Shown here in pieces: positions 4,446-64,000 of a stretch of 64,000 bases of DNA. The notes beneath the pieces are model-generated. The model saw only the letters and a program-made list of their open reading frames with translations, searched no databases and was not told the origin of the DNA. Position numbers and translations under genes: made by a program. The stretch comes from Flavobacteriales bacterium. GTDB lineage: Bacteria > Bacteroidota > Bacteroidia > Flavobacteriales > BACL11. Where the stretch lies: NCBI GenBank assembly GCA_965183885.1, contig OZ238992.1, forward strand, positions 1,915,159 to 1,979,158, in the 5' to 3' direction. How positions within the stretch are numbered: position 1 is the first letter of the stretch; each line of letters opens with the position of its first letter.

Positions 4446-5318
4446 ATGAAAAAAATCTTCCCCTTATTTCTATCTTTAATATCTTTTTTCTCTTTAGCAC
4501 AAACTAAAACAGAAGCTTATATTAATAATTATAAAACACTTGCAATTGCTGAGATGAACCGTTTTAATATTCCTGCTTCTATTACACTTGCTCAAGGGAT
4601 ATTAGAGTCAGGGAATGGTGAGAGTAGATTAGCTACTGAAGGAAAAAATCATTTTGGAATAAAATGTCATAGTAATTGGAGTGGAAAAACAATAATTGAA
4701 GATGATGATGAAAAAGGAGAATGCTTTAGAAAATATCCTAAAGTAGCAGATTCTTATAGGGATCATTCTTTATTCTTGACTGAAAGAGGACGCTACTCGT
4801 TTTTATTTGATTACTCTCCAACAGATTATAAAAAGTGGGCCAAAGGGCTTAAAAGAGCTGGCTATGCTACTAATCCTAAGTACCCATCATTATTAATTAA
4901 CTTAATTGAGCGTTATGAACTTTATCAGTATGATAAAGGTAGTGAAAGAGGGAAACAATTATATTTTGCACATACTTATGGCTTGCCTTACCTTACAGGA
5001 CTAGGAGCTTATTACTTTAATAAAAAATCTTTGTATCATCTTGATGTAAGCACATCATTTGTTTTTTCTAATGCTAGTTTTGGGTATAATTATGAGCTTT
5101 TTAATAAGTTTTATGCAGGAGCGAATACTGGAGTACTTTATTTTCCTACAAAGGAAGAAGATTTTATTCCTCAAGTTTCTGCTGAATTGATGTATAGAAA
5201 ATCAAGTAAGAATAAGCGTTATAATTCTGTATTAATAAGGGGGGGGATGCAATACCCTTTAACCAAAATGGACTATAAATTTATACCTTATATTAGTATT
5301 TCATATTTATTGAATTAA
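4446..5318 (+). CDS. Secreted glucosaminidase-domain (mannosyl-glycoprotein endo-beta-N-acetylglucosaminidase-like) protein
   Basis: Signal peptide. ITLAQGILESGNGESRLATEGKNHFGIKC matches the catalytic region of FlgJ/LytD-type glucosaminidases. The C-terminal half is aromatic-rich and of unknown function. Confidence 0.8.
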   Translation: MKKIFPLFLSLISFFSLAQTKTEAYINNYKTLAIAEMNRFNIPASITLAQGILESGNGESRLATEGKNHFGIKCHSNWSGKTIIEDDDEKGECFRKYPKVADSYRDHSLFLTERGRYSFLFDYSPTDYKKWAKGLKRAGYATNPKYPSLLINLIERYELYQYDKGSERGKQLYFAHTYGLPYLTGLGAYYFNKKSLYHLDVSTSFVFSNASFGYNYELFNKFYAGANTGVLYFPTKEEDFIPQVSAELMYRKSSKNKRYNSVLIRGGMQYPLTKMDYKFIPYISISYLLN

Positions 5319-5323
5319 GAAAC

Positions 5324-6835
5324 TTATTCAATAATTATATGCTTGTCTACAGTACCATCATCATAAATGTAAAATAGGGTAGCATTTCTTTTTATAGTAG
5401 TTTCTTTTCCTAGTATATCTACTATTTTAAGAAGTTTTCGTTTAGTTTTTTGTACTTCATTAAGAATGCTTACAGTACAAACAGCTTGGCAAGAAGATAA
5501 ACTAGTGTAAACTCCTGTTCCTAGCCCGTAGTCAATACAAGTGCCATTTGTGCAATCCCAAGAAGGAGTAAAGTTACAATTGTTATTAAAAGAGTGTTGA
5601 GGATCAATATTTCCATTGTTTATAGTCCAGTTAGCATAAGCCCAAGTAGTATCATCAGCTTCAATGCAGTATAAATTAGGGTTGTTACTGATATTAAACT
5701 CTGATGCACTAATACTCATATTGCTGTTGTTTCCATTTCTAATATCTAGCGTTGTAAGCATATTATTGTTACAAATTAAGTTCTTTAATCTTGTATTTGT
5801 ACTTAAATCAAGACTATTAAGTTGATTATTAAAACATGATAAATGTTTTAAGGCTGTATCTTGATTTATTGTAAGGTTAGTTAGTTGATTACCGTCACAA
5901 GCTAATGTTCTTAAATTAAAAAGGCTGTCAGCATTTATACTAGTAAGCAGGTTTGTACTACATTCAAGTCTTATTAAACTAGGTAGTACTAGTGAGCTTA
6001 TGTTTGATATCTTATTGTTATTACAATGGAACTCTTTAAGGTTTGGATGTGTTCCAGCAATAATATTTGTAAGGTGATTATCATTACAATAAAGCTTTTT
6101 AAGTGAATAGTTGGAGCTGATGTCTAAAGTAGTAAGTGTATTGTCATTACAATACAGGTTTATTAGTGAAGGGTTTTGGTCTATATTTAAGCTAGATAGT
6201 AAATTTTGTCCACAATATAAATGTTCTAGATTAGGGTTGGCATTTAAGTTTAAACTACTTATTTGGTTTAAGAAACAGAATAGAAACTTTAAGGATGAAT
6301 TGTAAGTTGTGTTAAGGTTGGTGATTTGATTATCAATGCAATATAGTTTCTCTAATGCAAAATTATCATTAATGTTAAGGCTAGAAAGTTGGTTTGAGCT
6401 ACAGATTAATATTTTTAAACCGGTATTTGAGTTTACGTTCAGATTTGTAAGTTGGTTTATTTCACAGTTTAAGTATTCTAAAAAAGTATTACTACTTAGG
6501 TCCAGATTGTTAATCTGATTTCCATTGCAATCTAGGTGTGTTAAGGAGGTGTTGTTACTTACATCTAGACTCGTTAGTAAATTATTAGAACAGTTTAAGT
6601 CGTTTAGAGCAGCAAAAGCATTAATCCCTGTTAAATCAAGTATCGATAAAGAGCTAACATCTAAGGAGCTAATAGTATTAATTGAATTAGTATTAACTGA
6701 ATCATTAAAGCTAATACCATCACCCATACCATTGCTTTCTAAATAAAACTCAAATGCATTATCTGGAATATGTGTCTTTTGTGCTTTTCCGTTTAAGGCA
6801 AATACAAAAAATAAAAGTAGAAGTTTGTATTTCAT
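5324..6835 (-). CDS. Secreted leucine-rich-repeat protein with 4-Cys module and short T9SS-like C-terminal domain
   Basis: Signal peptide, then about 14 LRR units of 21-23 aa (L..L.C..N.L..L....N..). The tail is PSWDCTNGTCIDYGLGTGVYTSLSSCQAVC + KLLKIVDILGKE...LFYIYDDGTVDKHIIIE. Confidence 0.85.
   Translation of the reverse strand: MKYKLLLLFFVFALNGKAQKTHIPDNAFEFYLESNGMGDGISFNDSVNTNSINTISSLDVSSLSILDLTGINAFAALNDLNCSNNLLTSLDVSNNTSLTHLDCNGNQINNLDLSSNTFLEYLNCEINQLTNLNVNSNTGLKILICSSNQLSSLNINDNFALEKLYCIDNQITNLNTTYNSSLKFLFCFLNQISSLNLNANPNLEHLYCGQNLLSSLNIDQNPSLINLYCNDNTLTTLDISSNYSLKKLYCNDNHLTNIIAGTHPNLKEFHCNNNKISNISSLVLPSLIRLECSTNLLTSINADSLFNLRTLACDGNQLTNLTINQDTALKHLSCFNNQLNSLDLSTNTRLKNLICNNNMLTTLDIRNGNNSNMSISASEFNISNNPNLYCIEADDTTWAYANWTINNGNIDPQHSFNNNCNFTPSWDCTNGTCIDYGLGTGVYTSLSSCQAVCTVSILNEVQKTKRKLLKIVDILGKETTIKRNATLFYIYDDGTVDKHIIIE
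5713..6613 (-). repeat. Intragenic tandem LRR-coding repeats (about 66-69 nt units)
   Basis: Periodic L..L.C..N.LT.L motif through roughly residues 75-375 of the 503-aa protein. Boundaries are approximate. Confidence 0.7.
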
Positions 6836-20884: not shown

Positions 20885-21056
20885 AGATAGAAGCTTACCA
20901 AAAGTTTCTTTACTAACTTAACTATAATTTTATTTCCAAAATTACCTATCTTCCTTAAATACCTGATTATCAATAAAAATATTGTCTATTGTTCTGTACT
21001 TATGCAAATAGGTTAGTTCAGATTTGTTTTGTATGTTTAGGGCTTTATTAGAAAAA

Positions 21057-24000
21057 ATGACAATAGAACAATATATAGACAATATAAACCAGAGATACCA
21101 ATTAGGAAATGCAACAGAACATACATTTAGAGGAGACTTACAGCAACTCATTGAAAGTTTAGTTCCTGAAATAAGAGCTACTAATGAGCCAAAAAGACAA
21201 TCTTGCGGAGCACCTGACTACATCTTGACTAAAAAAGATATACCGGTAGGGTTTATTGAAGCTAAAGATATTGGAGATAAAGACCTTGAGGGAAAGAAAA
21301 AATCAGTAAATAAAGATCAATTTGACCGATATAAAGCATCATTAGTTAATTTGATTTTTACAGATTACATAGATTTTCATTTATATAATGATGGTGAGTT
21401 TGTTACCAGAATTGCCATTGCAGAAGTAACTGAGAAAGGAATTGTTGCATTACCTCAAAATTTTGAGACGTTTGAAAATCTGATAAAAGACTTTTGCACT
21501 CACATTGGGCAAAATATAAAAAGCTCAAAAAAGCTTGCCCAAATGATGGCAGGAAAGGCTAGGCTTCTTTCTGATGTTATTGAAAAAGCTTTAACTAGTG
21601 ATGAAGATAATCATGAAGATAGTACTTTGAAAGAGCAAATGACTGCCTTTAAAAGCATTCTGATACACGATATTACTCCTAAAGGCTTTGCGGATGTTTA
21701 TGCACAAACCATTGCCTACGGAATGTTTGCAGCTCGTTTGCACGATCCAACTTTAGATACTTTTAGCAGACAAGAAGCGGCAGAATTGATACCCAAATCA
21801 AATCCATTTTTAAGAAAACTATTTGGCTACATTGCTGGACCCGATATTGATGACAGAATTAAATGGATTGTTGACAACCTTACCGAAATATTTTTAGCCT
21901 GCAATGTTGAAGAAATTCTAAAGAATTACGGAAAGTCCACAAAAATGGAAGACCCAATCATTCATTTTTATGAAACTTTTTTGGCAGAATACGACCCGAA
22001 ACTAAGAAAAGCAAGAGGTGTTTGGTACACTCCTGCCCCTGTTGTAAATTTTATTGTTCGTGCAGTTGATGATATTTTAAAAACAGAATTTGATTTACAA
22101 CAAGGTTTGGCGGAGACTTCTAAAACAAAAATTAAAGTCAAAGTACCTACCAACGATAAACGTTCTAAAGCAGGTTATAAGCAGGTTGAAAAAGAAATAC
22201 ACAAAGTACAAATTCTTGACCCTGCTACAGGAACAGGAACTTTTTTAGCAGAAGTAATAAAACACGTACACAAAAAAATTAAAGGACAAGAGGGGGTTTG
22301 GAGTAGTTATGTAGAAAAACACTTGCTACCACGCTTAAGTGGTTTTGAGTTGTTAATGGCAAGTTATGCAATGGCACATTTACAATTGGATTTATTGCTA
22401 AAAGAAACAGGGTTTAAACCTACAAAAAACCAACGAACAAGAGTTTATCTAACCAATAGTTTAGAGGAATACCACCCAGACACAGGAACTTTATTTGCCA
22501 ATTGGTTAAGTAGTGAAGCTAATGAAGCTAGCCATATAAAACGAGATACACCTGTAATGTGTATTATCGGGAATCCGCCATACAGTGGTGAAAGTGCCAA
22601 TAAAGGAGATTGGATTATGGATTTAATGCAAGACTACAAAAAAGAACCAGGAGGTAAAGAAAAATTAAAAGAACGAAACCCAAAATGGATAAATGACGAT
22701 TACGTAAAATTCTTACGCTATGGTCAGCACTTTATCGAAAAAAACGGAAGTGGTGTTTTGGCTTTTATCAATCCTCACGGATTTTTGGATAATCCTACTT
22801 TTAGAGGAATGCGTTGGAACTTACTCAAAACGTATGATAAGATTTACACCATAGATTTACATGGTAATAACAAAAAGAAAGAAGTTAGTCCTGACGGTTC
22901 AGTAGACCAAAATATTTTTGATATAGAACAAGGTGTTTCAATAAATATTTTTGTTAAAACAGGTAATAAAAAGAAAAGTGATTTGGGTAAAGTTTTTCAT
23001 TATGACCTATACGGAAAACGAAATGTTAAATATGATTTTTTATCTAATAATGATTTAAAAACTATTGATTTTAAAGAACTTGAAAATATCGTACCAAATT
23101 ATTATATGGTTCAAAAAGATTTTGCTCAACAAAAATTGTATGATAAGGGATTTGTTCTAAATAAATTATTCCCAGTAAACAGTGTTGGCATAGCAACTTC
23201 AAGAGATAGTTTCACTATTCATGAAACAAAACAAGAAGTAATTGATGTTATTGAAGAATTTTTGAGCCTTGATAATGAAACTGCTAGAGATAGGTTTAAA
23301 CTAGGGAACGATGTTCGAGATTGGAAAGTAGAACTAGCTAAAAAGGATTTAGTGGAGAGTAATTGTGACTACAACAACATAATCTCAGTAACATATCGTC
23401 CATTTGAGGATAAAAAAACATATTTCACTGGTAAATCAAAAGGTTTCCATTGTATGCCTAGAGGAAAAGTAATGGGGCACTTTTTTAATAAAAGTAATTT
23501 AGGTTTAGTTATTGGCAGACAAGGATTAGCAGTAGGTACAATGACTTGGAACTTGTCTTTTATAACCAAAAATATGACAGACCTAAATATATATAGGAGA
23601 GGTGGAGGAAATACATACCCTCTTTATCTCTATCCTGAAAACAACGAACAACAAACTATTGAAGAATCAGCAGATAGAAAACCTAACCTTAACCAAGAAA
23701 TTGTAAGAGAAATAGCTGAAAAATTGGAGTTAACATTTACCAATGAAAAAGAGCAAATGGAAAATACTTTTGCACCTATTGATATTTTAGACTACATCTA
23801 TGCCATTATACACTCACCAACTTATCGAGAGAAATACAAAGAATTTCTAAAAATCGATTTCCCAAGAATTCCTTATCCAAAAGACAAAAATACGTTTTGG
23901 AAATTGGTTAAATTAGGCAGAGAAATACGCCTAATACATTTGTTAGAGTCTCCAATAGTGGAAGATTACATTACAACTTATCCAAAAGACGGAAATAATA

Positions 24001-24278
24001 CCATTACAACCAAAGTCGGCAAAAAAGATTGGGAGTTATTTGATGAAGAAAAGCAATTGGGAAGAATATGGATAAATGAAGAACAGTACTTTGACAATAT
24101 TCCTTTAACTGCTTGGGAGTTTTATATTGGAGGCTACCAACCTGCCCAAAAGTGGTTGAAAGACCGAAAAGAAAGAACCTTAGAATTTGATGATATTTTA
24201 CATTATCAAAAAATTATAGTTGCTCTAACTGAAACGGATAGGATAATGAAGAAAATTGATAAAATTGAGATTGAATGA
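21057..24278 (+). CDS. Type IIG-like restriction-modification fusion: PD-ExK nuclease + gamma-class N6-adenine methyltransferase + type-ISP-like C-terminal specificity domain (no helicase)
   Basis: The track ORF starts at TTG 21024; I prefer ATG 21057 (MTIEQYIDN). N-terminal GAPDY..(x20)..FIEAKD (DNA 21213-21266) is PD-(D/E)xK-like. SAM motif VQILDPATGTGTFL. Catalytic IIGNPPYSG (DNA 22572-22583). The C-terminal FAPIDILDYIYAIIHSPTYREKYKEFLKIDFPRIPYP is typical of LlaGI/YeeA-type specificity domains. Confidence 0.8.
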   Translation: MTIEQYIDNINQRYQLGNATEHTFRGDLQQLIESLVPEIRATNEPKRQSCGAPDYILTKKDIPVGFIEAKDIGDKDLEGKKKSVNKDQFDRYKASLVNLIFTDYIDFHLYNDGEFVTRIAIAEVTEKGIVALPQNFETFENLIKDFCTHIGQNIKSSKKLAQMMAGKARLLSDVIEKALTSDEDNHEDSTLKEQMTAFKSILIHDITPKGFADVYAQTIAYGMFAARLHDPTLDTFSRQEAAELIPKSNPFLRKLFGYIAGPDIDDRIKWIVDNLTEIFLACNVEEILKNYGKSTKMEDPIIHFYETFLAEYDPKLRKARGVWYTPAPVVNFIVRAVDDILKTEFDLQQGLAETSKTKIKVKVPTNDKRSKAGYKQVEKEIHKVQILDPATGTGTFLAEVIKHVHKKIKGQEGVWSSYVEKHLLPRLSGFELLMASYAMAHLQLDLLLKETGFKPTKNQRTRVYLTNSLEEYHPDTGTLFANWLSSEANEASHIKRDTPVMCIIGNPPYSGESANKGDWIMDLMQDYKKEPGGKEKLKERNPKWINDDYVKFLRYGQHFIEKNGSGVLAFINPHGFLDNPTFRGMRWNLLKTYDKIYTIDLHGNNKKKEVSPDGSVDQNIFDIEQGVSINIFVKTGNKKKSDLGKVFHYDLYGKRNVKYDFLSNNDLKTIDFKELENIVPNYYMVQKDFAQQKLYDKGFVLNKLFPVNSVGIATSRDSFTIHETKQEVIDVIEEFLSLDNETARDRFKLGNDVRDWKVELAKKDLVESNCDYNNIISVTYRPFEDKKTYFTGKSKGFHCMPRGKVMGHFFNKSNLGLVIGRQGLAVGTMTWNLSFITKNMTDLNIYRRGGGNTYPLYLYPENNEQQTIEESADRKPNLNQEIVREIAEKLELTFTNEKEQMENTFAPIDILDYIYAIIHSPTYREKYKEFLKIDFPRIPYPKDKNTFWKLVKLGREIRLIHLLESPIVEDYITTYPKDGNNTITTKVGKKDWELFDEEKQLGRIWINEEQYFDNIPLTAWEFYIGGYQPAQKWLKDRKERTLEFDDILHYQKIIVALTETDRIMKKIDKIEIE

Positions 24279-32753: not shown

Positions 32754-33604
32754 TAGGAAAGTAAATAAATTGCAAAAGAAGATAATAGGATTCCAAACCA
32801 GTTTAGCCTACTAAGTTGTTCCTTATAGAGCAGGACTCCAACTAGGGTTGAAGTAAGTACTACACCTATGCTGATTAATGGAAAAACAACAGTGCTATTA
32901 AGAGTTTGTAGTGCTTTTAGGAAAAATACTAGAGAAAAAAAGTTAGGTATACCAAGTGCAACTCCCCAATAAATGCTTTTTGCTTGAAGCTTTACTTTAT
33001 TTTTGAAGCTAGAGATTAATAAAATGAGTATTCCGCTAATGCTTGCACTAGCAAAGAGTACCATAAAATATAAGTAGTTGTTCTCGTTTGGAAATTGTTG
33101 AGCAAAATCATTAAAGATACTATCGGCTATACCTTGTCCAATAAAAATAAAGAGTATCGCTCCTAGGTATTTGCTGTCAAAATTAATTTTCCCTGCTTCA
33201 GTGGAGGAAAAATAAATTCCTGCTAGTGCAAATATAAGGCCAATACCAAGGTTTAGAGTAAGGCTAGCACTAGGGTATAGGGCTAAACTAACTGATACAG
33301 GAATAATAACAGACATCTTATTGGCAACGGTAGTAATTGAAATTCCTATTTTTTGTGTGCCAAAAGAATAAAACATGAAAACAATTATAAAAAGGAAGCC
33401 CATACTTACTGCATGTACAATCCAGTCGGCAGTTAGTATAGCATTAAGAGTTACTGTATTGTTAAAATACAATAAGGCACAAATTGCTGCAGTAGCATAA
33501 TTAACTATTAACCCCTGTAAATTAGCTACTTTATACTTTTGAAACTGCTTAAATATAATGATTAAGACATTGAATAATAGTATGGTATAAATAATATTAT
33601 TCAT
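32753..33604 (-). CDS. DMT/EamA-like membrane transporter
   Basis: 283 aa with about 10 TM helices in two halves. Family call is by topology only. Confidence 0.6.
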   Translation of the reverse strand: MNNIIYTILLFNVLIIIFKQFQKYKVANLQGLIVNYATAAICALLYFNNTVTLNAILTADWIVHAVSMGFLFIIVFMFYSFGTQKIGISITTVANKMSVIIPVSVSLALYPSASLTLNLGIGLIFALAGIYFSSTEAGKINFDSKYLGAILFIFIGQGIADSIFNDFAQQFPNENNYLYFMVLFASASISGILILLISSFKNKVKLQAKSIYWGVALGIPNFFSLVFFLKALQTLNSTVVFPLISIGVVLTSTLVGVLLYKEQLSRLNWFGILLSSFAIYLLS

Positions 33605-34625
33605 TGATAATAAGCGCTAGTTTATCTTCTGTAGTATTAGTTTTAGAATATATTTTTCCATTGATACTTGGAGTTTCTACACCGTTATTAAGTATTTTAT
33701 TTGCAGTAAAAACCCTTGCTTCATCCCATATATTAGCATCAATAAATGTTTGTAAAGTTTTGCTTCCTCCTTCAACAATTAAAGACTGAATATTTAATTT
33801 ATATAAATATTCTAAAATACTATTAATTAAGTTGTTAAAATCTATTTTAATAAAAGTATTACTTCCTTTTTTTTTTGATTTTAATGCATTAAAAATGATG
33901 GTTTCTGCTTCATTATTAAATAACTTTAAGTCCTCAGAAAGTTTTAAATTGCTATCAAGCACAATTCGTGTAGGGTTATTTCCTTTTACCTGACGAACGG
34001 TTAGGGAAGGGTTGTCTTTTTCAGCTGTAGTTCTACCTACAAGTATGGCAGTTTCTTCAGCTCGCCATTGATGCACTAACTCTTTGGATTTACTAGAGGT
34101 CATCCAAAATGGTTCTTTTTGGTCTTTAGGAGCTATGAATCCATCTTTACTTTTTGCCCATTTAAGAATGATGTAAGGGCGTTTCTTCTCATGAAAAGTG
34201 AAAAACCGCTTGTTTAAGAGTCGGCTTTCTTTTTCTAAAATTCCAACACTTACTTCAATGCCCTTGTTTCTCATTTTTGCTATTCCTTTTCCAGCAACTT
34301 CAGAAAAAGAATCAATACAACCAATAACTACTTTTGGTATTTTATGTTCAATAATTAAGTTAGAACAGGGAGGAGTTTTTCCAAAATGAGCACAAGGTTC
34401 TAGGTTTACATAGAGGGTAGATTTTGAGAGTAAACTTTTATCTTTTACACTAGCAATTGCATTAACTTCAGCATGAGCTGCTCCATAATTTTGATGATAG
34501 CCTTCTCCAATAATTTCACCATTATATACAATAACAGAACCTACCATAGGATTTGGAGCTACATGGCTTAATCCTTTTTGGGCTAAGCTTAAACATCTTT
34601 TCATGAAAATCTCCTCAGTTTGCAT
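33597..34625 (-). CDS. ribD: Bifunctional riboflavin biosynthesis deaminase/reductase
   Basis: 342 aa. Deaminase zinc motifs HAEVNAI and PCAHFGKTPPC, plus the C-terminal reductase domain. Confidence 0.92.
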   Translation of the reverse strand: MQTEEIFMKRCLSLAQKGLSHVAPNPMVGSVIVYNGEIIGEGYHQNYGAAHAEVNAIASVKDKSLLSKSTLYVNLEPCAHFGKTPPCSNLIIEHKIPKVVIGCIDSFSEVAGKGIAKMRNKGIEVSVGILEKESRLLNKRFFTFHEKKRPYIILKWAKSKDGFIAPKDQKEPFWMTSSKSKELVHQWRAEETAILVGRTTAEKDNPSLTVRQVKGNNPTRIVLDSNLKLSEDLKLFNNEAETIIFNALKSKKKGSNTFIKIDFNNLINSILEYLYKLNIQSLIVEGGSKTLQTFIDANIWDEARVFTANKILNNGVETPSINGKIYSKTNTTEDKLALIINE

Positions 34626-40808: not shown

Positions 40809-41162
40809 ATGAAATTTAAAAACACCGGAGCACAGAAATCTACAATTACTAGAAATGTTGATAGTTTTGTTTCAAAAACAGATAACATTTTTAAAGCTGT
40901 ATCAGTAATGGCAAAAAGATCTTCTCAAATTAATGAAAAAATGAAAGAGGAGTTGATGGATAAACTACAAGAATTTGCTTTAACTCAAGAGCAGTTGGAT
41001 GAAGTTTTTGAAAATCAAGAGCAGATTGCAGTTTCTAAATTCTATGAAAGCTTGCCAAAACCTTGGGCAATTGCGATGAAAGAATTATTAAACGATGAAA
41101 TTTACATGCGTGATAATTTGCAAGAGGAAAAGGAAGAGGATGAATCAAACCAAGATGCTTAA
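40809..41162 (+). CDS. rpoZ: DNA-directed RNA polymerase subunit omega (Bacteroidota long form)
   Basis: 117 aa. KAVSVMAKRSSQIN-type core, acidic tail, and bamD-rpoZ-coaBC synteny. Confidence 0.65.
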   Translation: MKFKNTGAQKSTITRNVDSFVSKTDNIFKAVSVMAKRSSQINEKMKEELMDKLQEFALTQEQLDEVFENQEQIAVSKFYESLPKPWAIAMKELLNDEIYMRDNLQEEKEEDESNQDA

Positions 41163-42351
41163 TAGAAAGAAAGTATTACTAGGGGTATCAGCTAGCATTG
41201 CAGCTTATAAAACAGCTGAATTGGTACGTTTATTGAAAAAATCAGGAGCTTCAGTTAGAGTAATTCAAACTGAAGCTTCTTTGGATTTTGTAGCTCCCTT
41301 AACTTTAGCTACATTATCTGAAAATCAGGTTCTGAGTAAAATGGTTGACGCCGAAAGTGGTGAGTGGAATAGTCATGTTGAACTAGGTTTATGGGCAGAT
41401 ATTATGCTTATAGCGCCACTTACAGCAAACACTATGGCAAAAATGGTAAATGGGGTTTGCGATAACTTATTATTAGCAACTTATTTATCGGCAAAGTGCC
41501 CAGTTTATTTTGCTCCAGCTATGGATTTAGATATGTACAAGCATCCTTCAACGGCTAGTAATATTGTAAAGCTAGAGAGTTTTGGGAATATATTAATTCC
41601 TTCAGGATTTGGAGAATTAGCTAGTGGACTAGTAGGTGAGGGACGTATGGCAGAGCCTTCTGAGATTATTGAGCATATAAATAATGATTTAAATAAGAAG
41701 CTTACATTATCAGGAAAAAAGGTATTAATTACTGCTGGACCTACTCATGAAGCAATTGATCCTGTTCGTTTTATAGGAAACAGGTCTTCAGGAAAAATGG
41801 GAATTGCTTTAGCACTTGAGGCTGCAAGTAAAGGAGCAAAAGTAGATTTAGTGTTAGGGCCAACTCATTTGGACTGTAAGCATTCAAATATTACAGTACA
41901 TAGGATTGAGAGTGCAAGTGAGATGCATGATATGGTAAATATTCATTTTAAGGCTTCAAATATTTCAATATTTGCTGCTGCTGTAGCTGATTATACTCCA
42001 GAGTTAAAAGCAGTACATAAGATTAAAAAGAAGGATAGTAAACTAGCAGTATCACTAATAAAAACTATTGATATTTTAGCAGATATGTCAGCCAAAAAAC
42101 AATCTGGACAGTTTGTAGTAGGATTTGCTTTGGAAACTGAGAATGAATTGGAAAATGCTAAACAAAAATTAGTCCGTAAGAAATTAGATATGATAGTTCT
42201 TAATTCTTTAAACAATAAAGGAGCAGGCTTTGGACATAATACTAATAAAATAACTATTATTGACAAGCATAATAATAGTAGTAATTATGATTTGAAAGAG
42301 AAACAAGAGGTGGCAAGAGATATTATTAATAAAATTATTGAAATTAGCTAA
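41140..42351 (+). CDS. coaBC: Bifunctional phosphopantothenoylcysteine decarboxylase / phosphopantothenate-cysteine ligase
   Basis: The track ORF (41095) is over-extended. The likely start is ATG 41140 or 41155 (MLNRKKVLLGVSASIAAYK). CoaB motif ITAGPTHEAIDPVRFIGNRSSGKMG. Confidence 0.9.
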   Translation: MNQTKMLNRKKVLLGVSASIAAYKTAELVRLLKKSGASVRVIQTEASLDFVAPLTLATLSENQVLSKMVDAESGEWNSHVELGLWADIMLIAPLTANTMAKMVNGVCDNLLLATYLSAKCPVYFAPAMDLDMYKHPSTASNIVKLESFGNILIPSGFGELASGLVGEGRMAEPSEIIEHINNDLNKKLTLSGKKVLITAGPTHEAIDPVRFIGNRSSGKMGIALALEAASKGAKVDLVLGPTHLDCKHSNITVHRIESASEMHDMVNIHFKASNISIFAAAVADYTPELKAVHKIKKKDSKLAVSLIKTIDILADMSAKKQSGQFVVGFALETENELENAKQKLVRKKLDMIVLNSLNNKGAGFGHNTNKITIIDKHNNSSNYDLKEKQEVARDIINKIIEIS

Positions 42352-55855: not shown

Positions 55856-57346
55856 TTAAAAACTAAATATTGAAGATGCTACTTTTTTTATAAGAGAATA
55901 TAATCCTTTATTTTTTTTACCTGACAGGGAATTCTGATATTTAATTCTACTATTTTCTGATTGTAAGTGTTTTATTATTAAGGATTTATTTGTATCATCT
56001 GCACTTCCAATTAAATCTTTGGAAATCATACAGTCATGCTTACAATTATTTTCAAAACTAAAATCTATATTTCCTGTATTAAAATCCATTTCTTTTGGAC
56101 CGTAATAGAATCCTCTTGGTTTTAAAATCAAAGATAAAAATTGTTGTATTTCCATTCCTGCTAGACCCAAACTAAAACCGAAAACATTTTCACCTCGATT
56201 AATAAAGTGATTCTTAGGTAACCCCTTTATATACTTTGGATTATCTAATTCTCCTGATAATTCTAATGCCGCATCTTCAGGTCTATATTGCCCCAAACAT
56301 TGCATGCATATTCTTTCAGGTCCTATTGTGTGTGCTTTCCATCTAGCTTGATCTATATTTGATAAATCTGCATTTGGATTTGTATCAATTCCACCATCAA
56401 TAACTGGAATTAAGTTTGCAAATGATAAACAATCTAAAGCGTATCTAGGAAGAGGCATATCTACACAAGAAAATAAAATATCACAATCAAGCGCTGCTTC
56501 TTGTCCTTCTTTTTCAGTAATACTATAAGGTACGGCATTAATTTTTAAACCAGAAATGAGTTCAGTTTTTAAAAGTCTCTTTTTTTGAACATCTACTTTA
56601 AATTTTCCAATATCAGCTCTATTTATTGCTAATAATCTATCTAAATTTTTTAATTCAACTAAATCAAAATCAATAAGCGTTAAATTCTTAATACCTGTTC
56701 TTAAAATAGCTTCAGTAACTATAGAGCCAACACTACCTAAACCTACTATTCCAATTTTCAATCTAGAAATTTCATGCTGTTTTAAATCTCCCCAAGATGA
56801 AATAGTACGTTTAAACTCTTCTCCGAAATTAGATTTTGGGAAAATATCATCACAGAAATATGTTTTTAGGGACTTACCTACTACCCTTACGGATTCGCAC
56901 CAATATCGTTCATAAGTATTTGGGGCTTTTTTTATCCAAAATCGAGCACTCCAATAATTATCTATTCCAATTGTCATTCCAACTAGAGGTAACCCTGTAA
57001 CTGCCTTAACTCTTGGAGCTAACATTTTTTCTGCCTCTATATCGTCAAAGCTCATTCCTTGCCAACCTGGATAAGGATGACTATGAATAAAACAGATTCC
57101 TAAATTATTAGCTAAAGCATAAGAGGTTGCCTTATCAAAATAAACGGAATTAAAACTTACATTTCCATGTATATTTCTATCTCCAAATTCTGGTAAAATC
57201 ACTTCATTAATAACTCCTGTTTCTCGTAGTTTTCCAGAAGATAATTTATAAAAAGCAAAGCATAAATCTTCTTGACCATCCTCTCTAATAAGGTGTTCAA
57301 AAAATATCCTATTGACATTTTCTGTCATTGTTATACTATACTTCAT
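55856..57346 (-). CDS. JAB (JAMM-like deubiquitinase-type metalloprotease) fused to ThiF/MoeB-type E1-like adenylating enzyme
   Basis: 496 aa. N-terminal E (GQEDLCF) plus HSHPYPGWQGMSFDD (H-x-H-x8-S-x2-D). The C-terminal half has IGIVGLGSVGS (GxGxxG), LIDFDLVELKNLDRL, FSCVDMPLPR, and CMQC...CKHDC cysteine pairs. Confidence 0.8.
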   Translation of the reverse strand: MKYSITMTENVNRIFFEHLIREDGQEDLCFAFYKLSSGKLRETGVINEVILPEFGDRNIHGNVSFNSVYFDKATSYALANNLGICFIHSHPYPGWQGMSFDDIEAEKMLAPRVKAVTGLPLVGMTIGIDNYWSARFWIKKAPNTYERYWCESVRVVGKSLKTYFCDDIFPKSNFGEEFKRTISSWGDLKQHEISRLKIGIVGLGSVGSIVTEAILRTGIKNLTLIDFDLVELKNLDRLLAINRADIGKFKVDVQKKRLLKTELISGLKINAVPYSITEKEGQEAALDCDILFSCVDMPLPRYALDCLSFANLIPVIDGGIDTNPNADLSNIDQARWKAHTIGPERICMQCLGQYRPEDAALELSGELDNPKYIKGLPKNHFINRGENVFGFSLGLAGMEIQQFLSLILKPRGFYYGPKEMDFNTGNIDFSFENNCKHDCMISKDLIGSADDTNKSLIIKHLQSENSRIKYQNSLSGKKNKGLYSLIKKVASSIFSF

Positions 57347-57702
57347 TCGAAATCTAATAATGTTCTTAAAAATGCTAAATAATCATCCGCAGTCATACCA
57401 GAAGTCCATCCTTTAAATGGTCTACTCCAATACTGATATTCTTGTGTAGGAACTTTTCTGTCGTGTATTCCGCCAAAAGGATGTGTGCCTCCACCTCCTG
57501 TAATAGGAAGTAAATGTGGTTTTATATGTGGTCCTGAAGGCGGTAACAATGGAAACTGTTGACCTTGTAAAGCTATTTCAATTTCTTGTCCTTTAAACCT
57601 CCCTAATGGAACGATAAACTTGAAGCACACAAAATTATTTGTGTGCATCCAAGTTTCGAGTCCTTTGCTTTGCAGTTGACTCATTAACTCATTATTTCCC
57701 AT
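57343..57702 (-). CDS. E2/UBC-fold-like protein lacking an active-site cysteine (Prok-E2_E-like)
   Basis: 119 aa. FPLLPPSGPHIKPH resembles the UBC YPxxPP...HPN segment. The gene sits between a Ubl gene and an E1 gene and overlaps the E1 start by 4 nt. The only Cys is C26. Confidence 0.55.
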   Translation of the reverse strand: MGNNELMSQLQSKGLETWMHTNNFVCFKFIVPLGRFKGQEIEIALQGQQFPLLPPSGPHIKPHLLPITGGGGTHPFGGIHDRKVPTQEYQYWSRPFKGWTSGMTADDYLAFLRTLLDFE

Positions 57703-57704
57703 AA

Positions 57705-58148
57705 CTACGAAACAGTTGTAGGTTCAAGTTTACAAGAACTAAATTTAAGAGCATTTTTAATAGATACTTTATGCTCTCTATCATTTTTATAACTAACTTC
57801 TATATGTCCACTAATTTGTTTTAAATAAAACCCATTAGCATTCTTTCCTGATGCAGTTAATATTTGATTTGGAGTCATAAAACATTCATCTACTTGAAAA
57901 GGTTCATCATCAACATAAATGATTAGTTTCTTATAAGGTTTTGCAAAAAAACCTTCAATTCCAGCCTCATTAAGATCAATTCTTTCATCTAATTGAACTG
58001 GCTCAAAACCTTTCTCATTTACTTTGATTAATAATTCATAATCTTCAACCGGGAATAGATTTGCTTTCTTTAATATTTCTTCCCCTGTAATAATTGCATC
58101 AACAGTTTCAAATTTTTCTCTGTTAACTTTGTAACTAAATTTTTCCAT
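57705..58148 (-). CDS. Tandem ubiquitin-like (two beta-grasp repeats; Multiubiquitin-type) protein
   Basis: 147 aa. Two roughly 65-aa repeats share the same pattern (FSYKVNREKFETVDAIITGEEILKKANL... and LIIYVDDEPFQVDECFMTPNQILTASGK...). 2-nt gap to the E2-like gene. Confidence 0.6.
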   Translation of the reverse strand: MEKFSYKVNREKFETVDAIITGEEILKKANLFPVEDYELLIKVNEKGFEPVQLDERIDLNEAGIEGFFAKPYKKLIIYVDDEPFQVDECFMTPNQILTASGKNANGFYLKQISGHIEVSYKNDREHKVSIKNALKFSSCKLEPTTVS

Positions 58149-58173
58149 TTTTTTGTTTTTTTAATGGATTAAC

Positions 58174-58197
58174 TCATGTTCTTATATTAGAACATGA
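58174..58197. promoter_or_regulatory. 24-bp palindrome TCATGTTCT-TATATT-AGAACATGA (candidate operator of the Ubl operon)
   Basis: Perfect 9-bp arms, 26-49 nt upstream of the Ubl start codon (58148, minus strand), in the divergent region shared with the HTH-ImmA gene. Confidence 0.4.
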
Positions 58198-58265
58198 ATA
58201 TACTATTTTGGTAAAAGTTGTAAAAGAAATTTTGATAATAAATATAAAATTATATCTTTGCACAA

Positions 58266-58376
58266 CTATATAGGGATATTAAGGTGATAAGCCTTAATAG
58301 TGCAAGTCTGTAGAAAACTTTTACCCCATTTATATAATCCAATTTATTGTTACCTGCAATAGATTGGATTTTTTTG
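58266..58376 (+). ncRNA. Candidate small RNA (about 110 nt) bounded by a promoter box and a strong intrinsic terminator
   Basis: TTG (58232-58234)-N18-TATCTTTG (58253-58260) promoter. Internal 8-bp hairpin TATTAAGG/CCTTAATA (58277-58299). No ATG-initiated ORF in between. Confidence 0.35.
58337..58376 (+). terminator. Strong Rho-independent terminator with no upstream + strand gene
   Basis: 14-bp stem AATCCAATTTATTG / CAATAGATTGGATT (one G-U pair that would become an A-C mismatch on the other strand), 7-nt loop, then TTTTTT. Confidence 0.7.
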
Positions 58377-58616
58377 TTTTTATCCTTTTTTATTTTTAAA
58401 TTATGAATACAAATATACTTAAATAATATGTAATGATATTACAATGATACTGTTTTTGTTATCAAAGTTTTTAACTTTATGTTAATAACATATTTCAATA
58501 TTAATAACAGTATACTGAATATTTATTAGTTAGAGAGTTCTGACAATAGTATCTTATATAGTTACTTGTAAAGTAAATAAATTAACAAACAACCTAATAA
58601 TTAATTTATATTTTAA

Positions 58617-58624
58617 TAGATTTG
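58617..58624 (+). promoter_or_regulatory. -7 promoter box TAGATTTG
   Basis: Exact TAnnTTTG match. The TTG 58622 start of the track ORF lies inside the box, so the real start is ATG 58637 or 58649. Confidence 0.5.
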
Positions 58625-58636
58625 CAATCAACTTAT

Positions 58637-59734
58637 ATGATAAAATTTATGTCAAAAGATATTAATCATCCTGGTGTATTTCTAAATAAGCTACTTGTAG
58701 ATAAAGGAATTAGCCAACGAGAATTTGCCTCAAAGATTAATATTGCACATTCACTTTTAAATAACATATTAAAAGGTAATAGAAATATCAATATTAATAT
58801 TGCTATTTCACTTGAATCTGCTAGGATGAAAACTGCTGATTATTGGCTAAAAGAGCAAATGAAGTACTCTTTATATTTAGCAAAGAATAATGAAGAAATA
58901 ATAAAGAAAAATGAATGTATAAAGATATGGAATGATTTAGAGGAATTAGTTCCCATTTCATTTTTCAAAAAACAGGGTCATCTAGAATCAAGTTCTTTAA
59001 ATGATGATATTAATAAAATATATGAAATTTATGAGGTAGAAGACATAAGAAGCTTAAAGCATAAAGTTAACACCTATCAACTAAGCCATTTTAGAAAATC
59101 ATCAAAATTTCCTGAAAATGAAAGGAATATAATTGCTTGGTCTCTATTAGCAAAATATAAAGCAAAGCAAGAAGAATTAAAACCTTTTTCAAAAACGAAT
59201 GAAGGATTCTTGATAAATGAACTGAAAAGATGTTTTTTGAAGAATGAGAACACATTAAGTAAGTCTAAAGAAATACTAAATAAATATGGAATTAAATTTT
59301 TTATTTTGGACAGGCCACCTAAAACTCCAGTTGATGGGAAATCATTTATGTCTGGAAAATCTCCTGCAATAGTTTTATCATTAAAATATAAAAGATTAGA
59401 TAATTTTGCTTTTACATTATTTCATGAGATTGGACATGTTTTTAAGCACTTGATTACTCCTAAATATAAAGGTGTTGATTTCTTTGTTAACGGTTCTAAT
59501 GAAAAGTTTGAAGAATTTGAAGCTAACATATACGCAAGAAATCACTTAATTGATTCTGAATCTTGGAGTAATTTTATTAATTCAAATAGTGAATTTAATG
59601 ATGAAGTTATTAATAAGTTCTCTACTTCAATTAAAGTTCATCCTTCAATAATTAGAGGAAGAGTATGTTTTGAATATCCAGAATATTATAAAAAGAGGAG
59701 TGCTATAAATAGAATTAATTATTTAACTTACTAA
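58637..59734 (+). CDS. Fusion of XRE/HigA-type HTH domain and ImmA/IrrE-family (COG2856) zinc metallopeptidase
   Basis: N-terminal HPGVFLNKLLVDKGISQREFASKINIAHSLLNNILKGNRNI (HTH). C-terminal FAFTLFHEIGHVFKH (HExxH), then EEFEANIYARNHLI (downstream Glu ligand). Confidence 0.85.
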   Translation: MIKFMSKDINHPGVFLNKLLVDKGISQREFASKINIAHSLLNNILKGNRNININIAISLESARMKTADYWLKEQMKYSLYLAKNNEEIIKKNECIKIWNDLEELVPISFFKKQGHLESSSLNDDINKIYEIYEVEDIRSLKHKVNTYQLSHFRKSSKFPENERNIIAWSLLAKYKAKQEELKPFSKTNEGFLINELKRCFLKNENTLSKSKEILNKYGIKFFILDRPPKTPVDGKSFMSGKSPAIVLSLKYKRLDNFAFTLFHEIGHVFKHLITPKYKGVDFFVNGSNEKFEEFEANIYARNHLIDSESWSNFINSNSEFNDEVINKFSTSIKVHPSIIRGRVCFEYPEYYKKRSAINRINYLTY

Positions 59735-59793: not shown

Positions 59794-60589
59794 TTACTCC
59801 AAAATAATTCGCTTTTCAACACTACCATCGCTATAAATATAAAACAAAATACCTTTTTGTTTGGGGTTGGCTTCTTTACCTAAAATATCCACAACTTTAA
59901 CAAGTTTTTTGTTACTGCCATTTACCTCATAAACAGCATTAGGCTGCTCAGTAGTTTCCTCTAAAACAAAATTATCTATATACACTACATAGTTATTGGT
60001 GTCACCTATCCCTACTTCTACAGTAACATACTGCTCTGCATTTTGGGTATTGAATACCACACTGTACTGTTTCCAAATGCTATCACCTAGAGGAGAAGTA
60101 TAAAGATGAGTACCAAAAGAAGTATCAACATTAGAAATCCCTACTTGTATATAATTATTTTTAACATTATAACAAGGGGTTGTATCTGTTGGATAAGTAG
60201 ATGGCTCTTTCACATAAAAAGAGAGTTTGTAATTTTGTTCCGTACTTAAAGGTTGGCTCAGCTCCAACGAAAATTTAGATTGAGTCCAATATATATTTCC
60301 TGATATATATAGGCTCAGAATGCATATTAAGGTGCCAATGCCCATCTTGTGCCCCCCCCCCCAAAAAATAATTTGGAAGAAAAGTGCAGGTAACACAAGA
60401 ATCTTTAATTAGGGCTATCTGAGTACCATAAGCAACAGAATATAACATAGTATTATTCCAAGAGTTTGTATTCATAGCATGATAACATTGGCTTTCAGTA
60501 TTTAATTCAAAACTACCATTAAGGATTAAATTTTGAGAATTAGCAGTTAAACCAAAACATAAAAATAATATATAGATTAATTTTTTCAT
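59794..60589 (-). pseudogene. Frameshifted secreted CBM-like (jelly-roll) protein with short C-terminal domain, paralog A
   Basis: Track ORFs 60275..60589 (signal peptide, NLILNGSFE) and 59794..60396 are two frames of one gene. By homology to paralog B, the poly-G (11 G, 60352-60362) is in frame. The break maps to the (TA)4 run at 60303-60311. Confidence 0.7.
60352..60362 (-). repeat. Homopolymer: 11 C on + strand (poly-G in the coding strand of paralog A)
   Basis: Counted directly. Encodes the Gly run in ..NYFLGGGAQ.. Confidence 0.95.
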
Positions 60590-60636: not shown

Positions 60637-61441
60637 TTACTCAACAAAAACTTTCTTCTCCACACTACCATCGCTATAAATATAAAACAAAATACCTTTT
60701 TGTTTGGGGTTGGCTTCTTTACCTAAAATATCCACAACTTTAACAAGTTTTTTGTTACTGCCATTTACCTCATAAACAGCATTAGGCTGCTCGGTAGTTT
60801 CTACTAAAACAAAGTTGTCTACAAAAATATCTTTGTTATTTATATTGCCAGTATCTATCTTGACTGTAAGATATTCTTCTGCATTTTGGGTATTGAATAC
60901 TACACTGTACTGTTTCCAAATGCTATCCCCTAAAGGACTAGTGTAAAGATGAGAACCAAAAATAGTATCTGTATTGGATATACCTACTCTTATAGAATTA
61001 TTAAGAGGGTTATCACATAAACTATCATTTGATGGAGGTGGAGGGTCTTTAACATAAAAAGAAAGTTTATAATTTTTTTCACCACTTAATGGGGCATTCA
61101 ATTGTAAAGAAAAACGAGATTGTGCCCATCCACTTCCTGTTGGAAAATTAAAAGGTTTTGAGCGCATAAGTACCATCCAATTTCCATGTTGTACCCCCCC
61201 CCCCCCAATACATAGAAGGAATACATTTTTCACAAGAATCACTATGTATTTCCATTTTATGCCCATAAGAAGTAGAATAAGAAACTTTAGTATTCCAAGA
61301 ATTAAAAAATAAGCTTTCATAACATGAATTTACAGAGTGTTGCTCAAAGCTACCATTAAGGATTAAGTTCTGTGCTTTTATGATAAAAGCACAGAACATA
61401 ATTAAAAATATAACTGTTATTTTTTTAGTGACATCTAGCAT
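60637..61441 (-). pseudogene. Frameshifted (likely phase-OFF) secreted CBM-like protein with short C-terminal domain, paralog B
   Basis: Track ORFs 61148..61441 (signal peptide, NLILNGSFE ... MYWGGGG) and 60637..61320 (..IGGGGVQHGNW...) switch frame exactly at the 13-G tract. 12 or 15 G would give one continuous ORF. Confidence 0.75.
61194..61206 (-). repeat. Homopolymer: 13 C on + strand (poly-G in the coding strand of paralog B)
   Basis: Counted directly (61194-61200 plus 61201-61206). Confidence 0.95.
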
Positions 61442-61451
61442 TATACATCAT

Positions 61452-64000
61452 TTATTCTCCAAAGATAGTTAATTTTTCACTAAAGCGTATTGTACCATTA
61501 TTGTCGGTAATATTCACTAAATATAAACCTGTACTTAAATGTGCTACATTAAGTGCTGTTTGCTGCTTATTTTCAATAATGTATTTTGCAACTACCTTTC
61601 CTCTGGCATCAACAATGGATATTGTTGCAGTTTCATTATCTGCTAAATTAGTAGTAATATTAAGTACATCTTGTGCAGGATTAGGATAGATAATAAACCC
61701 TTCCATATCCTCAGCTGCCAAACGAGGTTGCGGCACTAAAGCCAAAGTACGCTCACAAATATTTACATAATCTATCCAATAATGATCATAATACCTCGCA
61801 ATTACTCGTGCTGTATATACTGCTAAACCATCGGTATGCGGACAAAGATAAGCAATAGTACGGACAGTTGCCAATTCACTAGCAGTAAGCTTAGTAAAAT
61901 CCTCTCCTCTAAGATAAGGCGCTAGTATTTTTTCATAGATGGTTTTAGCATTGAGCTCATAGCTACTTGTAGCTTGCATACTATCAATTATGGCTTGTGC
62001 TTCAGTATACAAGCTATCATTCATTTTTTCTTTAATCCTTACCATACGCCCCATATCTTCCTGTTCCTTAGTACTTACAAAAGTGGAAAGCACACTACTG
62101 CTGCTTATTAAAGTATTATCGTCTTTTACTTTTTCATACAAGCGTTCTTGGTTGTTGTAGACCTCACCAGTACTGCTCAATGCCGTATCAGATAAAGCAA
62201 GGGTTTCTAATGTTGCTAAATTAGGAGTAGCGCTAGTTGTAGGTGGAGGGGCTATAGGCAGTGGTGCACTTGTACAATTAGGTAAAGCACCACAGAAATT
62301 ATAAGGAGCGTATTTATTGGCAGCAAGCACAGGTACAGGTAAAGCACCACCACCATCATCATCACTAAAGAAAGGATTATAAGGATTAATATTTCTAGTA
62401 AAGAAAGAAGATAGGGTTCCATCACTCATTCCTTTAGTATAAATGTGTGGTTTAGTTGGAGTTCCTCCTACAATTTGTCCAAAATTCCCAGTCCACATAT
62501 TATCGTTAGGGTTAGCAAAAGTTCCTTGCTGTCCTATACTTCCTGCATTGTCAATTACTACTCCAAAATCAGAAAAACGAATATTATTGTTTGTTAATAT
62601 AGCTTGCATCTGTCCATCAAAATGCATACTCTCTACATAAAAACCTGAGTAATTGCAGTTTAGTGTTGGTGCATCAGAGTCAGAAATTTTAATTCCCATT
62701 TGTGTGCTTTGTCCGTCCCCAATAACACTATTGCTGTTTAGCATTGCATTATTACAATGTCCTAATTCCACCCCATAATTACTGTGCTTTAAATAATTCT
62801 GTTCTATTTGCAAGTTGCTTACATTCAAAAGGTTAATTCCTTGCCAATACACATCATCAAAACAATTGTTATTAATGTTATAGCTATTAGTAAGTGATGG
62901 GTTAAAATTACCTCCATACACCCCAATAGCTGCACTAATAGTGCCCAAAGTAGGGTCAGTGTTAAAACTATTGTTTTCAATAGTCATAAATCCATAATCG
63001 TTCATATTAGTCCACACCCCAACCGATACATTAGTCATTTGGTTATCATTTATAGTAGTAGCCCTATTCATTGTTATTGAAGTCCCCATTGCAGCCCATT
63101 GTCCCCTAGTAAAAGTATTGTTACTTAGGGTGGAGTTCATACGCTCAGCATATATTCCCAAGTCAAAATTATTAAACGTATTTGTTTTTAAGCTAAGACC
63201 TCCTACTGTTACTACATCGCCTATTAGTCCAGGAGTACCATCGGCATAAATACAGGCTGTAGGGTTAATAAAACTAGGGAAACTAGCTCCTGTGCTATGG
63301 GCAAAGTGAATGTTTTCAAAACTATTGTTATAGACTTCAAAACTTGTTTGCATCCCTACAATACCATACCTTAAATCTCTTATCGTGTTTTGATAAGCTG
63401 CATTGCTTGCATCTCCAATCACTAAACCATTAGTTTGGTGTAAGAGTATTCCCGTAAAGCTACTATCCACCTGTACGCCATTATATTGGTTGTATAAGAG
63501 TAATTCATCATTACTAATGGTATTTCCTCTAAAGATAGAGCCATTATCGGTTAAAGGGTGGCATACCAAACTATACAGATTATTATTGAATGTTGTGTTT
63601 TCAATAGTATATGCTGAATTATGAGCATTAGGGCTCATTACCACTGCTTTCATAGCATCCTCAATTATGGAGTTATTTGTGATAATATAACTATAATCGA
63701 CATAAATACCTTGCCACATACTATCCACACAAGCCTCTATATGTGTATTATTTAGGGTTAAAGAGGCTTCATCCACCCAAATAACGGCATCAGGTCCCAT
63801 TTTTATTTCACAATTATTAAAGGTAAGTCCATCAGGATTATCTACAAATAAGGTATCCTTAATTACGATGAGCTTATTATCTACAATAAAGGGAGGGCTT
63901 CCTAAAGGAACATTATTTTGTGCTATTACATCATTGGAGTTACCCCCTGCATAAAGCTTAATATCAGCTAATGGTACTCTACAACACAGCGTATCAAACA
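61452..64000 (-). CDS. Large right-handed beta-helix repeat protein with canonical T9SS type-A C-terminal domain (5' end outside window)
   Basis: The track starts at Met 63800, but I checked that the frame stays open to position 64000. Repetitive N..I.N/G rungs. C-terminus FIIYPNPAQDVLNI...GLYLVNITDNNGTIRFSEKLTIFGE. Confidence 0.8.
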   Translation of the reverse strand, partial: FDTLCCRVPLADIKLYAGGNSNDVIAQNNVPLGSPPFIVDNKLIVIKDTLFVDNPDGLTFNNCEIKMGPDAVIWVDEASLTLNNTHIEACVDSMWQGIYVDYSYIITNNSIIEDAMKAVVMSPNAHNSAYTIENTTFNNNLYSLVCHPLTDNGSIFRGNTISNDELLLYNQYNGVQVDSSFTGILLHQTNGLVIGDASNAAYQNTIRDLRYGIVGMQTSFEVYNNSFENIHFAHSTGASFPSFINPTACIYADGTPGLIGDVVTVGGLSLKTNTFNNFDLGIYAERMNSTLSNNTFTRGQWAAMGTSITMNRATTINDNQMTNVSVGVWTNMNDYGFMTIENNSFNTDPTLGTISAAIGVYGGNFNPSLTNSYNINNNCFDDVYWQGINLLNVSNLQIEQNYLKHSNYGVELGHCNNAMLNSNSVIGDGQSTQMGIKISDSDAPTLNCNYSGFYVESMHFDGQMQAILTNNNIRFSDFGVVIDNAGSIGQQGTFANPNDNMWTGNFGQIVGGTPTKPHIYTKGMSDGTLSSFFTRNINPYNPFFSDDDGGGALPVPVLAANKYAPYNFCGALPNCTSAPLPIAPPPTTSATPNLATLETLALSDTALSSTGEVYNNQERLYEKVKDDNTLISSSSVLSTFVSTKEQEDMGRMVRIKEKMNDSLYTEAQAIIDSMQATSSYELNAKTIYEKILAPYLRGEDFTKLTASELATVRTIAYLCPHTDGLAVYTARVIARYYDHYWIDYVNICERTLALVPQPRLAAEDMEGFIIYPNPAQDVLNITTNLADNETATISIVDARGKVVAKYIIENKQQTALNVAHLSTGLYLVNITDNNGTIRFSEKLTIFGE

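Follow-up and report, generated by a model that had tools for sequence, protein, structure and literature searches.

Contingency loci with poly-G/C tracts are known from Campylobacter jejuni, Neisseria, Haemophilus and Helicobacter (cj1139/capA, lgtA/C/D, pgtA and hmbR). In Bacteroidota, phase variation is driven by invertases, as in the capsule and SusC/D promoters of Bacteroides and in intragenic invertons. Contingency loci switched by slippage are textbook examples for host-adapted pathogens and, to our knowledge, essentially undescribed for free-living marine Bacteroidota. Here, we analysed a 64,000-nt stretch of DNA (the window) from a Flavobacteriales bacterium of the lineage BACL11 (assembly GCA_965183885.1, contig OZ238992.1, positions 1,915,159 to 1,979,158), in which the gene termed paralog B (60637-61441 of the window, minus strand) is split by a run of 13 G. 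We consider, with a probability of roughly 0.6, that paralog B is a slipped-strand contingency (phase-variable) locus that is currently OFF by +1. In C. jejuni, poly-G tracts of G8 to G11 have a mutation rate of 1e-4 to 1.6e-3 per division, and the tract of paralog B lies near the G9-G11 range of that species (PMC8355987).

Paralog B resembles the loci of these pathogens in several respects. An uninterrupted homopolymer of ca. 8 to 13 bases lies in the 5' third of the open reading frame (ORF), its length sets the frame and the ON or OFF state, the products are surface-related, and several paralogous or independent tracts occur in one genome. Unlike the pathogen loci, however, paralog B is hosted by an uncultured-type, low-GC marine Flavobacteriales bacterium, its tract encodes the conserved structural motif W-G-G-G where theirs encodes a dispensable linker, and it is known here from sequence alone, whereas switching was observed experimentally in theirs. 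With the invertase systems, paralog B shares the phylum and the logic of stochastic surface variation. Those systems work by site-specific inversion between inverted repeats, whereas paralog B has only a homopolymer within its ORF and neither inverted repeats nor an invertase. The mechanism is well known, and what is new is its setting, namely proteins of marine Flavobacteriales with a link to type IX secretion (the type IX secretion system, T9SS).

As sequenced, paralog B spans 805 nt and would encode a signal peptide, a β-jelly-roll resembling carbohydrate-binding modules (CBMs) and a C-terminal tail. The tract (61194-61206, minus strand) consists of 13 G on the coding strand, which appear on the plus strand as 13 C with an A on either side, and it occupies approximately codons 80 to 83 of 267. 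The N-terminal ORF (61148-61441, minus strand; 97 aa) starts with MLDVTKKITVIFLIMFCAFIIKAQNLILNGSFE, includes the signal peptide MLDVTKKITVIFLIMFCAFIIKAQ and an NLILNGSFE motif, reads CIPSMYWGGGG at the tract and, after 14 out-of-frame residues, stops (ending in CIPSMYWGGGGTTWKLDGTYALKTF*). The C-terminal two-thirds (60637-61193, minus strand) lie in another frame and run from VQHGNW to the stop as 184 stop-free codons; the ORF in this frame (60637-61320, minus strand) contains CIGGGGVQHGNWMVLMRSKP and a stretch given as GGGGVQHGNWMVLMRSKP and is open to the gene end. A preliminary description of this DNA had reported a 13-G homopolymer splitting the gene exactly at a conserved motif, with an N-terminal frame that loses register after MYWGGGG and a C-terminal frame that continues to the tail, and all of this agreed with our count of the tract, the two ORFs and the family alignment.

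The same description had calculated that 12 or 15 G are needed for a single ORF, and editing the tract in silico bore this out. With 12 G, a 267-aa ORF was obtained (YWGGGVQHGNW), and with 15 G, a 268-aa ORF (YWGGGGVQ...); with 11, 13 or 14 G, the gene was out of frame and truncated at 97-116 aa. No other stop or shift was present in the 83 + 184 codons, the tract being the sole lesion. Since 13 G ends translation after 97 residues, paralog B is OFF as sequenced. An interrupted version of the tract sequence, as compared to the uninterrupted G12 or G13, reads GGAGGTGGA.

The switch would work as follows. During replication, the nascent and template strands would misalign within the G run (slipped-strand mispairing), and a G would be gained or lost. 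An allele with 12 or 15 G would give the full protein (ON) and one with 13 G would be OFF, and one deletion or two insertions would return paralog B to ON. The same switch site may operate in a tandem copy, paralog A, and in many family members of other marine Flavobacteriales; with a switch site in several family genes, cells could vary stochastically which surface proteins are displayed. We infer that the length change would be reversible and of high frequency in the organism carrying paralog B, that the switching would be adaptive, and that the protein would have a ligand.

The G run is not what the composition of the window would lead one to expect. The G+C content of the window is 32%, and runs of nine or more G or C occur in its 64 kb only as the G13 of paralog B and the G11 (60352-60362) of paralog A. 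Among the Gly codons of 35 long ORFs of the window, GGA accounted for 48%, GGT for 30%, GGG for 14.6% and GGC for 7%, and in the ten other G-G-G tripeptides of the window only 1 of 30 codons was GGG; the earlier remark that consecutive GGG codons are odd in a genome favouring GGA and GGT was, thus, correct. When synonymous codons were shuffled within the repaired genes, the observed run length was reached or exceeded in 1.4% of cases for paralog B (p=0.014) and in 0.6% for paralog A (p=0.006). This test is conservative because each gene retains its own GGG codons. It indicates that amino-acid sequence and codon usage combined do not account for the run. A similar bias was seen across the family. 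In 33 in-frame family genes, the Gly codons of the motif were GGG in 42%, GGA in 49% and GGT in 8% of cases, whereas those elsewhere in the same genes were GGG in 11.6% and GGA in 25%, with GGT the commonest; at the motif, the share of GGG was thus 3.6 times as high (odds ratio 5.6, p=8e-11).

We searched for relatives with the 12-G reconstruction of paralog B as the query and found 157, most of them 250-285 aa long and from marine metagenomes and metagenome-assembled genomes (MAGs) of Flavobacteriales/Cryomorphaceae. Five further paralogs, all intact, lie on the source contig of 2.11 Mb (P0001, P0006, P0058, P0067 and P0082). The same species was not found in the genome and metagenome scans, in which the best matches were 55-57% identical, and our literature searches found no earlier description of the protein family of paralogs A and B. 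The motif W-G-G-G-(A/V)-Q-(E/D)-G was conserved throughout the family alignment, and the tract therefore encodes a conserved motif.

For a comparison across the family, 59 distinct alleles were collected from genome and metagenome loci, and the motif was located in each. Many alleles encoded it by interrupted codons (TGGGGAGGAGGG) and others with an uninterrupted run of 6-13 G. Forty-one of the 59 alleles were in frame. The frame was broken in 2 of 26 alleles whose longest G run was at most 5, in 9 of 21 with a run of 6-8 and in 7 of 12 with a run of at least 9 (Fisher p=7e-4 for ≤5 versus ≥6 G across the 59 alleles). Family genes were broken at the motif site and essentially only there. A one-base change at the tract restored the ORF to the conserved ...VEKK..E terminus in 15 of the 17 broken tract-bearing loci, the change being +1 in some and -1 in others; extra lesions were present in L125 and L144/L148. 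Among the best 120 protein clusters, ca. 22 comprised only a C-terminal part of the protein, beginning at the motif or directly behind it.

Differences between close relatives point to the same site. In one ortholog group, an in-frame T5G10 allele (L081) was identical in 11 loci from many samples, and an out-of-frame T5G11 allele (L091) showed no other difference from it over 729 nt. At the T/G junction, T6G9 instead of T5G10 changes W to L and keeps the frame. The out-of-frame alleles T8G8 and T9G7 recurred in three and two independent assemblies, respectively, and P0017, the closest non-self relative of paralog B, was out of frame in two assemblies, with G4TG6 where G4TG7 is required. Between lineages, including those currently broken, the ratio of nonsynonymous to synonymous polymorphism (pN/pS) was 0.26-0.42. 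At least eight divergent lineages have kept an uninterrupted run of 9-13 G. Tandem arrays of family genes exist in other genomes too (L102/L103, 456-750 and 1564-1855; L114), and one such array can carry a run of G9-G10 in one copy and an interrupted motif in its neighbour. These sequences fit a G run that has been repeatedly retained or regenerated and that in some lineages has been interrupted by G-to-A changes.

The preliminary description had proposed slipped-strand phase variation. What stands of this proposal is a long, uninterrupted tract that is the sole lesion of its gene, sets the frame, exceeds the codon expectation and lies in the gene of a secreted protein predicted to be T9SS-linked. 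The relatives add to it the clustering of frame breaks at the site, their rise with run length and the G10 versus G11 pair; reversibility within a lineage is the part that we infer.

Several observations weigh against paralog B as a contingency locus. Its tract length is known from one sequence, and the length polymorphism was seen in other family members. A homopolymer of 13 bases is difficult on every sequencing platform, and both paralogs are one G above a length that gives a complete ORF, as a systematic over-call would produce. Metagenome contigs may likewise carry homopolymer errors. A long-read MAG (AC_MB403, CALSQD010000002.1) holds a family copy (L007, 3001-3815) with three frameshifts in ca. 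150 nt, two of which fall at a C8 and, at the motif site, a G7; these are either errors of long-read assembly or signs of a decayed copy, and they call for caution with tract states taken from long-read MAGs. Outside its tract, paralog A is damaged a second time, at (AT)4. In the well-sampled P0037 ortholog, where the motif holds only G4AG4, no fewer than three distinct indel frameshift alleles were present, each with its lesion in the G-rich motif, and in this lineage (P0037, P0122-P0130; L006, L110, L111, L137) ca. 20 contigs were broken versus ca. 22 intact. Since the broken alleles are about as frequent as the intact ones, loss-of-function alleles are widespread in nature also where no long run is present, and the pattern looks more like the recurrent loss of a dispensable gene than a tuned switch. 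Finally, our literature searches found no precedent for switching by simple sequence repeats (SSRs) in T9SS-linked genes or in marine Flavobacteriales.

Paralog A itself (59794-60589, minus strand) is a tandem copy 47 nt downstream of paralog B and is likewise split. Its poly-G tract (60352-60362, minus strand) has 11 G at the same motif as in paralog B. At 11 G, paralog A retains the ancestral frame and reads FLGGGAQDGHW like P0024; this frame is lost ca. 45 nt downstream of the tract, at (AT)4 (60303-60310, minus strand), where one AT unit (2 nt) is apparently missing; adding one AT unit gave a 265-aa protein. At 10 or 13 G, a complete ORF was obtained as well, with a scrambled patch of 17 aa. 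Two readings of paralog A follow: it is decaying, or it has undergone a double frameshift in which one shift compensates the other. A 131-nt block of paralog B (60662-60792, minus strand), which encodes the tail, was 100% identical to the corresponding block of paralog A (59819-59949), the rest of the two genes being far more divergent. This suggests that gene conversion may recently have occurred between the tandem copies, limited to the tail region.

The alternative that survives best is a homopolymer miscall. If the true tract lengths were 12 G (paralog B) and 10 G (paralog A), the two genes would be intact and the OFF state would be an artefact, although the tract could still be mutable. 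Runs of 11-13 G exceed the length that is reliable on any platform, the excess is exactly +1 in both tracts, and the source is a single contig, as in long-read or metagenome-derived closed genomes; the frameshifts at G7 and C8 in L007 come from a comparable MAG. A consensus from a mixed population, moreover, may match no single cell. Yet the rest of the window argues for a sound assembly. It is 93% coding, 38 of its 51 homopolymers of at least seven bases lie within intact ORFs, including T10, A8 and G8, and a search of the window ORFs for split genes other than paralogs A and B found none. As internal controls, the G8 run (5239-5246, plus strand) located near the 3' terminus of a gene (4446-5318) with a glucosaminidase domain and the T10 run (33867-33876) within an ORF at 33597-34625 (minus strand) are in frame; these control runs could be mutable themselves. 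The only candidate split pair, 40809-41162 and 41095-42351, was rejected, being rpoZ and coaBC, two separate genes. Furthermore, the 11 G of paralog A preserve the ancestral frame through the tract, and a +1 over-call there would therefore imply a compensated double frameshift. Relatives are out of frame at only 6-8 G and recur as such in independent Illumina assemblies, where consensus errors are unlikely. Because the corrections required in the family go in both directions, +1 and -1, a uniform over-call bias was rejected for the family. We therefore regard a miscall as unlikely, though it is the most serious of the alternatives.

Somewhat less probable still is non-adaptive decay, in which the family would be dispensable, the G-rich motif would merely be its most mutable spot, paralog B (together with paralog A) would be a recent pseudogene, and the run would be unselected and give no switching that is regulated or of use. 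The lesion of paralog A at (AT)4, the extra lesions in L125 and L144/L148 and the P0037 lineage, broken in about as many contigs as it is intact and by indels that are not easily reversible, are in line with decay, and redundancy is plausible with at least five other intact paralogs in the genome. Paralog B, on the other hand, has no second lesion across 267 codons, and a single base restores nearly all of the broken tract-bearing loci. The pN/pS values correspond to continuing constraint. Although a change from GGG to GGA is synonymous and would be favoured at the G+C content of the window, the long runs have persisted in divergent lineages.

Expression despite the frameshift, by RNA polymerase slippage on G13 or +1 ribosomal slippage on GGG-G so that the 13-G allele would be leaky or programmed, is highly improbable: the two frames do overlap at the tract for 14 codons without an intervening stop, and transcriptional slippage is established for long homopolymers, but mainly for A/T runs, with G/C runs less documented, the peptides read out of frame show no conservation from one allele to the next, and, because 41 of the 59 family alleles are in frame, a frameshift is not a conserved requirement and a programmed frameshift as the normal state was rejected.

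To return to the contingency locus, the nature of its product bears on what a switch would control. No Pfam or NCBIfam family matched the paralog B protein above the threshold (E≤0.01), and paralog A showed a weak Pfam match to an HpiC1-like domain. The AlphaFold model (mean predicted local distance difference test score, pLDDT, 70) comprised a signal-peptide helix, a β-sandwich and three or four terminal strands. When this model was compared to the PDB with Foldseek, the best matches were the jelly-rolls of CBM4-2, CBM22, CBM16 and HpiC1, with E values of 6e-5 to 1e-3 and template-modelling (TM) scores of ca. 0.5 (target-normalised). The likeness to the folds of CBM4, CBM9, CBM22, CBM16 and HpiC1-like proteins (Foldseek E ca. 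1e-4, TM ca. 0.5) is not accompanied by a significant match to a CBM sequence family and rests on a model of moderate confidence. A carbohydrate-binding, CBM4/22-like jelly-roll is thus predicted as a lead rather than as proof.

The protein ends in a conserved tail of ca. 40 aa (60640-60759, minus strand; KKLVKVVDILGKEANPKQKGILFYIYSDGSVEKKVFVE), which is likewise found at the very C-terminal end of a variety of secreted proteins from marine Flavobacteriales. Its consensus is K-x-L-L-K-I-V-D-I-L-G-K-E...G-L-L-F-Y-I-Y-S-D-G-T-V-E-K-K..., part of which is given as ..LLKIVDILGKE..GLLFYIYSDGTVEKK... The tail was common to many otherwise unrelated proteins of this group (including loci L011-L080 and L162-L173), and on these diverse proteins it reached the stop codon exactly in 163 of 207 occurrences. 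Two other genes of the window carry it, namely that of a leucine-rich repeat protein (5324-6835; tail at 5327-5458, minus strand) and an ORF ending at 628 (tail at 497-625, plus strand). The tail alone matched none of the Pfam and NCBIfam sorting-domain models, including PF18962/TIGR04183 (Por_Secre_tail), at E≤10, and its profile showed no profile-profile similarity to type-A C-terminal domain (CTD) sequences by hhalign (probability 1.8%). With all three comparisons negative, the tail was rejected as a T9SS type-A CTD, and since no match to PF18962/TIGR04183 was found, membership of the protein in the type-A CTD cargo could not be demonstrated. The "sorting tail" of the preliminary description is, thus, real as a shared, strictly C-terminal module, and the match to known T9SS sorting domains that the name might imply did not hold. 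The tail may be a putative sorting or anchoring signal that has so far been undescribed.

Links to T9SS come from the gene context. Upstream of paralog B, on the same strand, lies the gene of a right-handed β-helix protein (61452-63800, minus strand) with a T9SS type-A C-terminal sorting domain (Por_Secre_tail, E=1.9e-17), and paralog B begins 10 nt past its end. Since no terminator-like site was found between the two genes in our scan, their co-transcription is possible; the promoter and terminator scan gave no enrichment, and the tool does not model Bacteroidota promoters. At family loci elsewhere, the upstream gene encoded a type-A cargo protein in ca. 9 distinct loci and a PorP/SprF protein (TIGR03519, E=5e-44) in ca. 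10 loci, giving ca. 19 distinct loci with such neighbours in total. The family, thus, resembles known T9SS cargo (type A, TIGR04183/PF18962; type B, TIGR04131) in its N-terminal signal peptide and strictly C-terminal conserved module, and cargo and PorP/SprF systems in that its genes lie directly downstream of type-A cargo or PorP/SprF genes. Unlike type-A and type-B cargo, the family has a tail of only ca. 40 aa that matches no sorting-domain model and is not similar to type-A CTDs. Given a signal peptide, a shared module confined to the C-terminus and neighbouring T9SS genes, we predict that the family is T9SS-linked by context.

Beside the paralogs, an operon (55856-58148, minus strand) encodes three proteins: a ThiF-type E1, whose N-terminus may carry a JAB-like HxH motif, a small protein lacking annotation and one with a multiubiquitin domain. 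Next to this operon lies a gene (58622-59734, plus strand) for a helix-turn-helix plus IrrE/M78 protein matching PD-Lambda-2_B, and the neighbourhood from 55856 to 59734 looks like a defence island. Farther away, the window encodes a 1084-aa Type ISP/IIG restriction-modification enzyme (21024-24278, plus strand; PADLOC REase_MTase_IIG, 1200 bits).

A broader reading, which we put forward tentatively and hold to be less probable than the switch in paralog B, is that the poly-G run at W-G-G-G is a maintained switch of a whole T9SS-linked, lectin-like surface family in streamlined marine Flavobacteriales, with each cell displaying a stochastic subset. The paralogs, arranged in tandem or dispersed and numbering at least seven in the source genome, would take part in it, and the benefit might, for example, lie in evading phages or grazers or in sampling algal glycans. 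If the run lengths were instead an assembly error, the work would at least flag a family-specific site for checking in closed long-read genomes. If the family-wide switch is real, no SSR contingency-locus system would have been described before it from free-living marine bacterioplankton, and the proteins carrying it would have a hitherto undescribed C-terminal sorting module of ca. 40 aa. The "split" genes of this family would then not necessarily be junk, which is of note to annotators, and the tract length at the conserved motif would serve as a marker of population heterogeneity in metagenomic reads. For the abundant, uncultured Flavobacteriales associated with blooms, the switch would be a cheap, stochastic way of diversifying T9SS-linked surface proteins, and this would have a bearing on phage-host dynamics and on the attachment to polysaccharides or particles in the ocean.

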